From a virus (Duplodnaviria > Caudoviricetes), in IMG/VR virus record IMGVR_UViG_3300028887_000104, positions 1-64,000 of that record: a stretch of 64,000 nt of DNA. One strand, given 5' to 3'. A program made the translations under genes and the position numbers. Positions within the stretch are counted from its first letter, which is position 1; the number at the start of each line of letters is the position of its first letter. This document shows, in pieces, positions 42,806 to 47,342 of the stretch. The notes below the pieces were generated by a model. That model was not told the origin of the DNA, made no database searches, and saw only the letters and a list, made by a program, of their open reading frames with translations.

Positions 42806-45800
42806 TTGGCAAGATTTGAAACATGGCTTAAATCCGATCTGAAAAATATGGTTTCCGTGACGAAACTTAGCGGAAACCTGTTTTCCGCTGACAACGGCGG
42901 GAACCTGATCGGCGTAGAAGTCATGGATGGCGGTTCCCTGGCCGTACTGGAAGGCATCGTTACGGGATACGTGATCCGCTCTGACGGCGCAACGCTGATT
43001 ATTACTGGCGAACTGGACGGAAACAAGGCATGGATTGAACTGCCTCAAAGCGCTTATGTGCATGTCGGGCAGATCAGCATTGTCATTAAGATCGGCGGTA
43101 CAACGGTTGGCGCGTGCTCCGGATATGTGTACCGGTCTACGACGGACACAATTGTTGATCCCGGGCACATCATCCCGAGCCTGGATGAACTGCTGGAAAA
43201 GATCGCAGACTGCGAAGCGGCGACTACGGCAGCGAATGAGGCAGCTAATCTTGCCAATACGAAAGCCGGACTTGCAAACGACGCCGCCACACTGGCAAAC
43301 CAGAAAGCCGAACTGGCTGACACCAAAGCAGGACTTGCAAACGACGCGGCTGCTCTGGCGAACCAGAAAGCTGAACTGGCTGACACCAAAGCAGGACTGG
43401 CAAACGATGCCGCCGCACTGGCGAACCAGAAAGCCGAACTGGCTGACACCAAAGCAGGACTTGCAAACGACGCTGCGGATCTGGCAAACACAAAAGCGGA
43501 ACTTGCAGACAGCAAAGCAACAGCGGCGAACAGCGCGGCGAACGCGGCGAATACCGCTGCCGGCAAGATTAACAACATGACCGTTGCGGCGAACGGACTT
43601 TCATCCGGATCTGACCCGACCGCGACGATCAGCGAAGTATCCGGGCATAAGCACATTCTGTTCGGTATTCCGAAGGGCGACAAGGGCGATGACGGACGCG
43701 ACTTCCACATCAAGCGCACGTTCAGCAGCATCGAAGAAATGGAAGCATACGATCCAGACGATGATCATACCATTTACAAGGTGCTGGAAAACGACTTTGT
43801 CATGATCGATACCGGAAGCGTGGAAGATCCGGATACAGGAAAGCTTTTCTGCTATGAACCGCAGACGGTTGATGTGTGGCGGTACATCGGCGATCTGTCC
43901 GGCGCACAGGGCATACAGGGGCCAGTCGGAGCAACCGGCGCACGGGGGCCGAAAGGCGATACCGGCGAACAGGGACCGACAGGAGATACAGGGCCTACCG
44001 GTGAAACCGGTCCTGTTGGCGCGACCGGCGCACAGACGTATGTGCATATCAAGTACAGCGCGAACCAACCGACGTCCGACACGGACATGAAAGACACGGC
44101 AGACAAGTGGATGGGCGTATACAGCGGACTGTCCGCGACAGCACCGACGACCTATACCAGCTATGTATGGTACAAGATCAAAGGCGAAATCGGCGATACA
44201 GGTGCCACAGGTCCAACGGGTGCCACGGGTGCCACAGGATCCAAGGGTGACACAGGCGCTACCGGACCGAAGGGGGCCACAGGCGCTACCGGTGCAACAG
44301 GCCCTGCCGGAAAGAATGCGAGTGCATTTGATATCAAAAAGTCGTACGCCAGCGTCGCAACCATGGAAGCGGATTACAATAATCCGGATCTGGCTGTCGG
44401 AGATTATGTCACGATTGCATCCGGAACGAGCGATCCTGACAACGCAAAGATCTACCGCAAAGGCAGTTCCGAGTGGGAGTTCATTGTTCAGGTATCCGGT
44501 TCGAAGGGTGATACCGGTGCCGCAGGTCCTACCGGAGCGACCGGTCCGACCGGCGCGACAGGGCCTGCTGGTGCAACAGGTCAGGCCGGACCCGCAGGAG
44601 CAACAGGTGCAACCGGACCTGCTGGTGCTACAGGTGTTGCCGGTGCGGATGGGCCAACCGGGGCGACCGGTCCTGCCGGAGTCACAGGCCCTACTGGAGC
44701 AACCGGTGCAGCTGGCACGGATGCATACGTATGGATCCGTTATGCTGCACAAGAACCGACGCAGGACAGCGATATGAAGACTACGCCGGATGAATGGATG
44801 GGCGTGTATTCCGGATCGGCTTCCACCGCGCCAACCACGTATACCAGCTATGTATGGTATAAGGTAAAGGGAGACGACGCAAGCCTTCCGAGCGTAACAT
44901 CCGCAGACAACGGAAAATTTCTCGGAGTTTCCGGCGGAAAGTGGGCGAAGACAAACGTTCCGACCATGACCGGCGCAAGCTCATCCATCGCAGGCGCGGC
45001 CGGACTGGTGCCTGCACCGGCGGCCGGAGCGAATGTATACTTCCTGAAGGGAGATGGGACATGGGCGATACCTTCAGGCGGGAAGCTGATCGTACGGGAT
45101 CTGGACACGGTAACGAACACCAGCGGAAGCTACACGCACAGCACGACCGTCAGCGATGCGGCCAGCGACATGAAGGCCGTTATGATCGAGCTGGGGGATC
45201 CGAGCGTATTCAGATCGACCATCAATATATCCGTTGGGACCGGAACGATCACGCTGAACTGTTCAGACGTAGCCGGAACGAGTACGGTAAAAGTGGGGCT
45301 GATGTTTGTGGCCGGAGCGGACGCACTGACCAGCTCGGAGTTTGATGTGCTGGCGGCGCGAATCGGAACGCTGAGCAGCCTGAAGACCACGGACAAGACG
45401 AGCTTGGTAGCTGCGACTAACGAACTGTATGACCATATTGAGAACAAAATACGGCATACCAGAAAGACAGATTTCAGCCTTTCCGACCTGCAATCGGCGG
45501 TTGTTGACCAGTGCCTTGAAAAGTACGGGCTTCATGTTGGCGACCAGAAAACCATCAATGGACGCACCTATGTTATCGCAGGTCTGAACGTGATGAAAGG
45601 TTCTCATGATTATACCTGTACAAGCAATCATGTTGGTTTGATTGTGATTCCGCATACCACCTGCAAGTGGAACGCAAGCGGAAATACCTACACAGGCGCA
45701 GACAACCGAGGCGCAGGATACAAAAACTGCGACTTGCAGTATTACCTTGCGAATACGGTTAAGGGATGGTGCGATACCGACCTTGGCTCAGGTCATCTGT

Positions 45801-46162
45801 ATCAGCATAAGAAACTATTCGGAAATGCCATCAACCAGACGGGATATAACCGCTTCGGAACGAACTCCGGTTGTACGTCTGGTTGGGAATGGGTTGATGC
45901 TTATATTTCCGCTCTTACCGAAGCGCAAGTCTTCGGTGGTGACCATTGGTCTTCTTCCGGTTATGATACGGGCGAAGCGAATACTCTGCTTCCTGTGTTT
46001 GCGGAGTTCAAGCATACAGATATCTTCGGAGACGAATATCCGTGGTTAAGGAACGTTTCATCCGCTTCGCAGGCGTGCCTTGCGAACACCGTCGGGGGTG
46101 CGTCCGGCGACTACGGCGTGAGCAAGGCCCATTGCGTGGCCGGGCTTATATTATACCATTAA
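42806..46162 (+). CDS. tail fibre / receptor-binding protein
   Basis: BppU-like N-terminus, 21-aa coiled-coil repeats, three collagen G-X-T blocks, C-terminal CLec/DUF6273-like domain (PWLRNVSS). Confidence 0.85.
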
Positions 46163-46167
46163 GAATT

Positions 46168-46188
46168 GGCAGGGGCTTGTCCCCTGCC
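46168..46188. other. GC-rich hairpin after the tail-fibre stop
   Basis: GGCAGGGG-CTTGT-CCCCTGCC. Confidence 0.8.
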
Positions 46189-46203
46189 CCAAGAGGTGAA
46201 AGT

Positions 46204-46361
46204 ATGAAGTGACAAACGAAGGAAAACGGAACCAAAGCCGGGTAGAGTTCGACAATACGTACTTCGCCGTTGATGACGATATCGAAAACCTGATAACAAC
46301 CAACTTCGGATTAAAAGGCGAAAAGCTTGGATACCGAGGCTTGGGAGACATAAATCGCTGA
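46204..46361 (+). pseudogene. truncated, frameshifted ORF resembling a DGR accessory (Avd-like) N-terminus
   Basis: RBS GAGGTG + ATG; one frame over reads VTNEGKRNQSRVEFDNTYF; family call from memory only. Confidence 0.4.
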
Positions 46362-46388
46362 AGAATGGCAATCAATAGGCGTAGTCAT

Positions 46389-46415
46389 GTGAGGTGCAAA
46401 TCCTTGCCCCGTGAT
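46389..46415 (+). ncRNA. 3' half of a tRNA-like RNA (T arm + acceptor strand)
   Basis: GTGAGG-TGCAAAT-CCTTGC-CCCGTGAT, same 3' end as 48516-48542; 5' half absent. Confidence 0.6.
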
Positions 46416-46432
46416 TTGGCCCAATATGGTCA

Positions 46433-46560
46433 GATGAACGAAAAGTAAGTAGCAGACAACCGAACCGGTGGCAAAGGGTGAAAGCATACCCGGAAATCGA
46501 AAGTTGTCTGTGTGATAGAGGATACGGGAACGGGAATCGGCTCGTTCCCAACCTCGTTCA
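46433..46560 (+). ncRNA. structured non-coding cassette
   Basis: Nested stems TGAACGA/TCGTTCA, CAGACAAC/GTTGTCTG, GGGT/ACCC, GGGAACG/CGTTCCC; no ORF. Confidence 0.5.
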
Positions 46561-46660
46561 GTACCCAATATGGTCAGACATTGGTCCCTTGAAAAAAAAC
46601 AGTTTAAAATGGCTAACCAAATGCCATATGTAAAATTCAGATATGAAAGGATGATTTACA

Positions 46661-46960
46661 ATGAAAAGAGAAGCTTACGAAGTACACATGAGCGTAGTCG
46701 ATGCGAACGGAACGCTGACAATCGACCCGACAGGTTACCCGAAGTCCGTTGACAGCCGGAGCTATGACAACGACCTGGAGAAGACATTCAATCGCGCACT
46801 GGGTCTGCTCGGCGCGGCGGAAAGCGCGATGAGTACGCAGGACACACGGCAGGTGCAGTACGGGTACATTATCCGGGTGAGCGACGGAATGCAGGTTGAA
46901 CGTCGCAGGTTTGGAAAGCTCGCGGAGTTGCCGGATCCGGAACCGAACGAGGGGGAATGA
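46661..46960 (+). CDS. hypothetical protein
   Basis: 99 aa, RBS GAAAGGA inside the 104-bp repeat. Confidence 0.7.
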   Translation: MKREAYEVHMSVVDANGTLTIDPTGYPKSVDSRSYDNDLEKTFNRALGLLGAAESAMSTQDTRQVQYGYIIRVSDGMQVERRRFGKLAELPDPEPNEGE

Positions 46961-46963
46961 TGA

Positions 46964-47284
46964 ATGGCTGATACATCATTTAGCATAGGAAATATCGAAG
47001 GTCAGGTCAAGGCTTTGTCTGACCACATTGCGAGCAATGAAGCAAATATTCTAATAGGGCCCCGTTTTGCTGTAGAAGTAGATATTTCTTCTAACGGAGA
47101 TAAGTTTGTAGATATTACATATCCAACAACGCCAACCGGATATCAGAGAGTTGGAGGTATCGCCTTTTCAACAACGTACAGGGCATATGTCAAAGGCATC
47201 GGCGGTGACAGATTGTATTATTATGTTGTAAATGCATCAGCAACTTCCACATTTCATGTATATCCTGTTTATTACAAATCATAA
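46964..47284 (+). CDS. small protein with a tail-fibre-tip-like beta-rich C-terminus after an in-frame site
   Basis: LSDHIA junction matches LYDHIE in the tail fibre. Confidence 0.65.
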   Translation: MADTSFSIGNIEGQVKALSDHIASNEANILIGPRFAVEVDISSNGDKFVDITYPTTPTGYQRVGGIAFSTTYRAYVKGIGGDRLYYYVVNASATSTFHVYPVYYKS

Positions 47285-47342
47285 CAATTATGGAGTGCCA
47301 AATATTCTCATGTCCAAATATGGTCAGAAGAGAGGGATTTGA

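Follow-up and report, generated by a model that had tools for sequence, protein, structure and literature searches.

How might a phage replace the receptor-binding tip of its tail fiber while leaving the rest of the fiber intact? Tail-fiber tips decide the bacteria to which a phage attaches, and to our knowledge, tip switching by a tyrosine recombinase has been described so far in few cultured systems (Rin in Bifidobacterium and, reportedly, a Rin shufflon in Eggerthella lenta prophages). The question is raised by a tail-fiber locus of a virus of the Caudoviricetes (IMG/VR record IMGVR_UViG_3300028887_000104), in which a short site lies in frame at the joint between fiber shaft and tip, recurs in a small downstream gene that carries another tip, and is repeated in an array that leads up to a gene for a Xer-like tyrosine recombinase. 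The window, i.e., the whole stretch analyzed, is the first 64 kb of this 77.7-kb record, which CheckV rates as complete. The locus and five relatives seem to represent a different solution from the described ones, with tips kept as cassettes that are bracketed by inverted sites and serve either a long shaft or a short stub gene. Judging from sequence comparisons, we take the host-range cassette system to be real, of a known general kind, and of unusual layout.

In-frame sites and homology breakpoints

The fiber gene product is 1,118 amino acids (aa) long when read from a TTG codon and consists of a collagen-like shaft, a conserved distal shaft (approximately aa 760 to 877), and a C-terminal tip (tip 1). 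An inverted copy of a 14-nt site, for which the array consensus is CCAATATGGTCAGA, marks the joint between shaft and tip, and another inverted copy lies in a downstream open reading frame (ORF), ORF106, between a short N-terminal stub and tip 2 (Table 1). Both copies have the same orientation and the same codon phase, with GAC as the Asp codon and GAC-CAY read as Asp-His, so that translation bears out the shared reading phase claimed in the original prediction, which was made from the letters of the window. All five sites named there (two inverted and three forward) are present, and eight further forward sites had been missed. The latter extend beyond the three named forward sites up to the tyrosine recombinase gene and separate four small ORFs and two tRNA-like RNA elements; three forward copies match the consensus exactly.

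Of the 17 plus-strand copies of the core A[AT]ATGGTC in the 77.7-kb genome, 11 lie within 2.6 kb (46.4 to 49.05 kb). Since only ∼0.2 copies would be expected in this interval from the background rate, a chance origin of the site cluster is excluded. The ORF106 site differs from the other sites by a C for T at one core-adjacent base, and the original prediction had named such a spacer mismatch as a possible block to exchange. In L115 and L112 (L and P numbers denote related loci and proteins compared with the window), the sites likewise vary at this T/C position, which argues for tolerance of the mismatch and makes it less worrying than had been feared.

Five loci (L115, L102, L112, L004, and L103) share the layout of a shaft, an in-frame site, a tip, an inverted site past the stop codon, and a short stub gene in which the in-frame site recurs with another tip. 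Inverted in-frame sites in the Asp codon phase number two each in the window, L004, L103, L112, and L115 and one in L102; four of the further loci have them in both the shaft and the stub gene, and in L102, the stub gene and a mini-tip are concerned. In L115, which belongs to the window's own lineage, the shaft ends in A-T-N-E-L-S-D-Q-I-A and continues into an 88-aa tip, followed by a forward site, an ORF99 homolog, a stub (M-A-N-S-N-F-N-I-G...L-S-D-H-V-A) with a second 88-aa tip, and then forward sites. L004 and L103, whose recombinases are 46 to 47% identical to that of the window, encode a 290-aa fiber protein whose end is homologous to the distal shaft of the window and which has the joint N-E-V-S-D-Q; their next gene is a 100- to 110-aa stub (M-A-V-T-N-F-D-K-P-V-G...L-S-D-Q), and inverted sites lie directly past each stop codon. 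L112 encodes P0288 with S-L-S-D-Q-I and a stub, ORF126, with L-N-D-H-I, and its forward sites lie past the stop codons and flank two small ORFs. L102 combines an ORF99 homolog, a stub gene with a tip 2 homolog, forward sites, and a 30-codon mini-tip behind an in-frame V-D-H site.

The two coding sites within one genome are identical at 22 of 23 nt in L004 and at 22 of 22 nt in L103, and the noncoding forward sites of L115 have the ATTGCGA flank common to its coding sites. Because the coding matches run through synonymous positions and the flank is shared with noncoding sites, we read the element as a DNA site and not as a protein motif only.

Homology between relatives ends at this element. 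Between L103 and L004, shaft DNA homology (89%) stops at the last base of GACCAGAT, and the homology of leader and stub stops at the second coding site and resumes at the forward-site core past the stub stop codon; both tips are unrelated. Shaft DNA homology between the window and L115, L103, and L004 stops at 45435 to 45440, and tip homology to L112 starts at 45416. The stub proteins of the window and L115 are homologous (52% identical) over aa 1 to 25, up to S-D-H-(I/V)-A, and unrelated thereafter, and P0157, P0279, and P0280 are conserved to SDQ and diverge completely beyond it. All mappable breakpoints fall at the site core. Shafts and stubs together carry at least 13 unrelated tips of 80 to 116 aa (or 241 aa), and just three pairs were related among the 19 tips that we compared. 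None of these 19 was found both on a shaft and, in a different genome, on a stub; both contexts were seen only for the broader tip 2 family. Because homology stops at the site core and the tips beyond it are unrelated, these comparisons show tip exchange at the site on an evolutionary scale. The claim that the site is a tip-swapping joint thus holds for the in-frame joint and for the breakpoints between relatives; its other part, switching within the genome, found no counterpart, neither an inverted tip among six genomes nor a junction contig.

Mosaic tail fibers that arise by homologous exchange are commonplace, and the tips could have been shuffled in this way, with the neck around the joint conserved for structural reasons, ORF99 and ORF106 forming an independent small fiber-like protein, and the recombinase and forward sites serving the array of small ORFs and RNAs only. 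The ORF99 and stub-tip pair, kept as a unit in L102 and L115, fits this explanation, as do a stub gene that appears to be expressed (ribosome-binding site [RBS], coupling to ORF99, and no terminator) and a neck motif kept as protein far outside this phage group. We nevertheless consider it quite unlikely, as the coding sites have the forward-site core, inverted, in six of six loci (and the flank too in L115) and as the identity of two coding sites in one genome extends through synonymous positions. Furthermore, the breakpoints lie on the core instead of being spread over the at least 100 conserved nt upstream, and the 3′ ends of the replaced tips coincide with forward-site cores.

Table 1. Positions of the fiber, site, array, and recombinase features in the window
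Feature	Coordinates	Strand	Details
Tail-fiber gene	42806..46162	+	From the ORF list; Pfam Collagen 2e-22; many PHROG tail-fiber families; translation
In-frame site at fiber shaft/tip joint	45428..45441	-	12/14 match to CCAATATGGTCAGA (2 mismatches); reads L-Y-D-H-I-E in the fiber frame
Tip 1, 241-aa DGR-type variable tip	45437..46162	+	VR at 46054-46149; 78-81% identical to P0159 tip (L112)
Forward site closing tip 1 segment	46421..46434	+	Exact consensus; preceded by 3′ half of a tRNA-like element
Forward site opening ORF99/ORF106 unit	46565..46578	+	Exact; belongs to 105-nt leader repeated at 48545-48649
ORF99, conserved small gene upstream of stub gene	46661..46960	+	L102 homolog 72% identical; L115 DNA 76% identity
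ORF106, stub gene	46964..47284	+	RBS, ATG, 20-aa conserved stub, in-frame site, then tip 2 (85 aa); translation
Second in-frame site, in ORF106	47018..47031	-	2 mismatches to CCAATATGGTCAGA; reads L-S-D-H-I-A in ORF 46964-47284
Forward site closing tip 2 segment	47315..47328	+	1 mismatch; 31 nt past ORF106 stop
Remaining array, eight further forward sites	47329..49048	+	Sites at 47505, 47670, 47989, 48009, 48377, 48548, 49009, 49035
Xer-like tyrosine recombinase, 333 aa	49116..50117	-	PF00589 2e-33 + PF13495; convergent with fiber operon

The two tips and the stub gene

The tip of P0159 in L112, to which tip 1 is related, is followed by the components of a diversity-generating retroelement (DGR), namely, avd, a template repeat (TR), and a reverse transcriptase (RT) gene. 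The 3′ end of tip 1, its variable repeat (VR), matches the L112 TR, with nearly all differences at template adenines. By sequence, tip 1 is a DGR-type (C-type-lectin-like) variable tip, as had been predicted for the domain behind the fiber site. The CheckV-complete genome has no RVT_1 match for an RT, and the sole TR-like match for tip 1 is in the relative L112 and not in its own genome. The region from 46054 to 46283 has the appearance of an orphan DGR target, with ∼25 codons of avd left. At the opposite end of the fiber protein, the N-terminal part is encoded by 21/63-nt tandem repeats (43232 to 43546) that specify A-N... heptad-like units upstream of four collagen-like blocks.

For the ORF106 protein, AlphaFold2 predicts a helix (residues 8 to 26) that contains the site, followed by a β-sandwich (pLDDT, 89), in agreement with the earlier expectation of an 85-aa β-rich domain behind the site. 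A fold search with tip 2 gave weak matches only, to the R2 pyocin fiber and to tailspike receptor-binding domains (E ≥ 0.03 in PDB). The tip 2 family (33 HMMER hits) occurs mostly on stub-like proteins of 83 to 140 aa, and it also forms the extreme C terminus of 191- to 494-aa proteins, one of which has an A-L-S-D-Q-I joint. ORF99, directly upstream, has no Pfam or PHROG match.

No terminator-like site was found on the plus strand between the fiber gene and the array with its stub gene. Because no such site splits the fiber gene from the array, the stub-tip protein is probably made, and "silent" is likely the wrong word for tip 2. A 105-nt direct repeat (46562 to 46666 versus 48545 to 48649; 97% identical) comprises a forward site, a leader, and the RBS and ATG of ORF99 in one copy and of a 115-aa ORF in the other. 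It seems to be a shared leader, possibly a recent duplication or a cassette-borne expression signal.

The recombinase and the candidate reaction

Only 68 nt separate the end of the array from the stop codon of the recombinase gene. The 333-aa enzyme has a SAM-like and a catalytic domain, its closest solved structures are XerA, XerC, and XerD, and its R-K-H-R-H-Y positions are invariant in the family alignment. Its NCBIfam matches are to XerA/XerC/XerD, integron-integrase, and FimB-type models, all below the curated cutoffs; none was to an Rci model, although whether the library holds one was not checked. A second tyrosine recombinase is encoded at ∼67.3 kb (genome positions 67353 to 67823, outside the window) within a 393-aa open frame and is probably the lysogeny integrase; the genome has no large serine recombinase. 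The family of ∼333-aa recombinases is common, with 138 and 361 relatives in gut/rumen metagenomes and IMG/VR, respectively. The relatives that we fetched carry a separate lysogeny recombinase (either a tyrosine integrase beside cI-like genes or a large serine recombinase), and where downstream sequence was available, the 333-aa gene lies directly after, and convergent with, tail-fiber genes.

We infer from this arrangement that the enzyme acts on the sites, and we consider it, on balance, probable that the Xer-like recombinase targets a ∼14-nt element (core TGACCA plus a weaker ATTG-type flank) and that tips are replaced as cassettes by recombination at these sites. The element would lie in frame within a helical neck that joins the fiber shaft to the receptor-binding head, once in the fiber and once in ORF106. 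Each tip would form a cassette with the in-frame site at its 5′ end and an inverted copy at its 3′ end just past the stop codon, and the shaft, ORF99, and the start-plus-stub segment would serve as the fixed scaffold. Two orientation-preserving crossovers would then allow the shaft and stub genes to trade tips within one genome or between coresident genomes, either by excision between the two in-frame sites and reentry via forward sites or by a double crossover between two genomes. Shaft-tip 1 and stub-tip 2 would thereby become shaft-tip 2 and stub-tip 1, with the scaffold unchanged, and a single deletion would suffice for a shaft-tip 2 fiber.

Rearrangement in silico agrees with part of what had been predicted. 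A deletion joining 45435 to 47026 yields a 962-aa in-frame fiber that ends in the ORF106 domain, and two nested inversions (45430 × 47315 and then the new junction × the flipped 47020 site) yield the same fusion, so that both proposed routes to the alternative tip are in frame. The first inversion alone gives an 880-aa truncated fiber. When one inversion is made with any of the 12 forward cores, 2 to 61 junk codons are added; the predicted stops within 20 codons occur with the three forward sites originally named (17, 3, and 3 junk codons), but not with all of the others (2 to 61). The tipless "OFF" states that such inversions were thought to represent are a formal consequence only.

These results bear on a classical multiple-inversion shufflon of the R64 or Rin type, in which only inversions would occur, tip 2 would be reached by two nested inversions through a tipless intermediate, and single inversions would be OFF states. 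The in-frame 962-aa fusion is compatible with it, each tip lies between inverted sites, these sites resemble sfx and rix in being short and asymmetric (PMC6109161), and the phage precedent Rin uses an arm-less Xer-like tyrosine invertase (PMC6109161). However, the spare tips in six genomes all follow a conserved RBS, ATG, and stub in sense orientation. Antisense tips are not stored, so that a single inversion never makes a new fiber; instead, each one kills the fiber. No inversion was seen among 80 related loci, with no minus-strand match between any pair of them at ≥85% identity. The end state of the nested inversions would invert ORF99 and the stub, an arrangement that was never seen, and inversion gives no role to the conserved RBS, ATG, and stub before the spare tip. 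Moreover, the gain and loss of cassettes between direct sites in relatives show that direct-site recombination occurs. The enzyme is Xer-like. The R64-type shufflon proposed originally is not supported at this locus, and we regard an inversion shufflon in general as unlikely.

The cassettes in question are present or absent exactly between direct sites, as a comparison of L103 with L004 shows for a tRNA-like cassette, and in more distant groups whose sites have other sequences, cassettes are likewise inserted or deleted between direct repeats (L018 versus L014 and L007 versus L008). Given that spare tips follow a stub in sense orientation, that inversions were not seen, and that cassettes come and go between direct sites, the layout leads us to favor orientation-preserving cassette exchange over R64-type inversion. 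In the distant groups, the small cassettes lie beside the recombinase gene (L007:1897-2160 versus L008:5817-5864 and L018:1890-2290 versus L014:4250-4265), and the bounding direct repeats are a 25-nt hairpin element and TTTTCMGAATGCGAAATT. A split fiber in L004 was considered as a candidate inversion (347 + 338 aa versus 700 aa) and rejected, as the gene coordinates give a 14-nt length difference; the region (L004:12796-14884) encodes a Peptidase_S74 fiber that is 700 aa in two sister contigs, and a frameshift or an assembly error is indicated.

Several observations weigh against site-specific cassette exchange by this enzyme. Action of the 333-aa recombinase on the sites is presumed, the basis being adjacency and conservation only. 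The neck motif (V/I)xx(L)(S/N)(D/S)(Q/H)(I) is kept as protein in many distant tip proteins that use other codons, and part of the shared joint sequence would therefore reflect structural constraint. The stub gene, with a strong RBS and ATG, coupling to ORF99, and no plus-strand terminator-like site between it and the fiber gene, may be an expressed gene in its own right and not a store. On its 3′ side, ahead of the forward site, the tip 1 segment retains part of a broken avd (∼25 codons) and one half of a tRNA-like element, and because of these remnants, the last rearrangement there did not amount to a clean cassette event. In L102, the homologous stub site has decayed (TCTGAACAG), and given this counterpart and its own C for T, the ORF106 copy may be losing activity. 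Finally, no rearranged copy of the phage was found in the assembled sequences of IMG/VR, GenBank phages, or JGI metagenomes, in which rare variants would escape notice, and there was no close relative in IMG/VR or GenBank phages.

Some of these points would also suit a relic, i.e., a system active in an ancestor whose tip swap is now dead owing to the ORF106 site mismatch and the damaged 3′ end of tip 1, leaving the forward-site array alone perhaps mobile. The fiber and ORF106 sites have two mismatches each, compared with three exact forward sites, the L102 stub site has decayed, and the DGR that formerly served tip 1 has been lost. We think this very unlikely, as the recombinase is intact with all catalytic positions kept, the TGACCA core is retained in both coding sites, and the differing positions also vary among the sites of relatives in which the other features are intact.

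The searches for rearranged copies and relatives covered several collections. A blastn search of 45000 to 50200 against GenBank phages gave no match, an IMG/VR search with the single recombinase sequence found no relative, and an alignment-based search gave no confirmed relative in genome contigs and one weak N-terminal match only in IMG/VR. A degenerate junction pattern had six chance matches in IMG/VR, none of them in a fiber. The exact shaft-end pattern yielded no junction contig or variant in JGI metagenomes, and a looser pattern led to L115. In distant relatives, k-mer and anchor-word searches for sites were uninformative, the sites being short and lineage specific. We set aside a group of ∼77-kb IMG/VR phages (recombinases 45% identical over residues 52 to 332) with many downstream indels that are not at recognizable sites or fiber tips. 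The contig of P0003, a 99%-identical recombinase, ends 42 nt past the stop codon. Along with this contig, L006 and L012 end exactly at the recombinase-adjacent cassette region, which fits population heterogeneity or repeats.

If the enzyme acts as proposed for cassette exchange, its activity would account for the gain of unrelated tips at one precise codon by gut and rumen phages of this group, and the locus would be a natural, compact in-frame cassette-exchange module in which host-range switching is linked mechanistically to an integron-like array of other cargo. A more far-reaching version, which we offer tentatively as a possibility, is that one Xer-like recombinase runs an integron-like cassette platform in the phage late operon, with whole small genes and tRNA-like RNAs moving between direct sites, while an orientation-preserving double crossover (in effect, "recombinase-mediated cassette exchange" in vivo) trades tips between the shaft and a 20-aa stub gene that is expressed. 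In that case, two different tips would always be made in one long and one short version, and the tips could be swapped or imported from coinfecting relatives.

Array cargo and comparison with known systems

Beyond the tip 2 segment, the integron-like array (47329 to 49048) holds small plus-strand ORFs, each between forward sites (47343 to 47495, 47697 to 47993, 48037 to 48381, and 48644 to 48991). Two of their stop codons are the TAA inside a site, and RBSs follow within ∼10 to 80 nt. None has a Pfam match over the curated cutoff; there was one weak A2L zinc-ribbon match on 48644 to 48991. The array also contains members of a tRNA-like RNA family, found at 47516 to 47666, 48390 to 48542, 58286 to 58400 (minus strand), and L103:4357-4470 and as a 3′ half at 46381 to 46416. 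These share a Leu-type D-arm string (GGAATAGGTAGAC), a T-arm loop TGCAAAT, and covarying 8- to 13-bp acceptor-like stems, and an unrelated center of 55 to 100 nt replaces the anticodon arm. Forward sites enclose two copies in the window and one in L103 as cassettes, whereas the 58.3-kb copy is no such cassette. Neither Rfam nor ARAGORN gave a match for the units.

The array resembles an integron without its defining features. As in integrons, a tyrosine recombinase lies beside a one-directional array of small, mostly promoterless cassettes with one repeated site that stop codons overlap, and relatives differ in which cassettes they carry; counted over the whole array, six small plus-strand ORFs and two RNA-like units lie between 11 forward sites. 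Unlike integron integrases, the recombinase scores below both cutoffs for that class (TIGR02249, 107 versus 265 bits; NF011946, 69 versus 435 bits). The sites are simple and ∼14 nt long, in contrast to folded attC hairpins (60 to 140 nt with a GTTRRRY core). A repeat search found no attC-like palindromes at the cassette ends, the only long stems being those of the tRNA-like elements, and most units between sites start with an ORF a few bases past a simple 14-nt site. The array and the recombinase gene converge, whereas in integrons, the gene is divergent with a Pc promoter, and part of the cargo here is a gene fragment, the tip, read in frame with a resident gene.

The serine-invertase switches Gin of Mu, Cin of P1, and Min of p15B likewise exchange the C-terminal part of a tail fiber at a site within the gene, but those enzymes are serine recombinases that invert antisense alternatives, whereas a tyrosine recombinase adjoins the fiber genes here. 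The R64 (IncI1) shufflon (Rci, sfx, and pilV) shares with our locus a tyrosine recombinase gene beside the array and, where a constant part meets alternative C-terminal tips, short asymmetric in-frame sites; sfx may also share a CCAAT..GGT-like string. Its segments hold convergent alternative tips that single inversions switch, whereas there are no opposite-orientation ends here, and its target is a conjugative pilus adhesin and not a tail fiber.

The closest described system is the Rin shufflon of Bifidobacterium breve and Bifidobacterium longum prophages (Mavrich et al. 2018, PMC6109161). In Rin, the in-gene site and the site past the gene's 3′ end are direct repeats, with the spare tips inverted, so that one inversion gives a new gene; the site is 11 bp long, and inversions have been seen in reads and between prophages (PMC6109161). 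Both Rin and our locus have a phage-encoded, arm-less Xer-like tyrosine recombinase beside a receptor-binding protein gene and separate from the integrase, a constant N-terminal part with variable C-terminal tips of ∼80 to 100 aa, and a short asymmetric site that lies in frame both within the gene and before each spare tip (here and in the five related loci). Unlike in Rin, no single inversion is productive here (12 of 12 give junk tails) and none was observed in related loci or contigs. The tips of our locus are instead bracketed by inverted sites, the spare tip is sense oriented and follows an RBS, an ATG, and a conserved stub of its own, and the same sites also delimit unrelated cargo, namely, small ORFs and tRNA-like RNAs.

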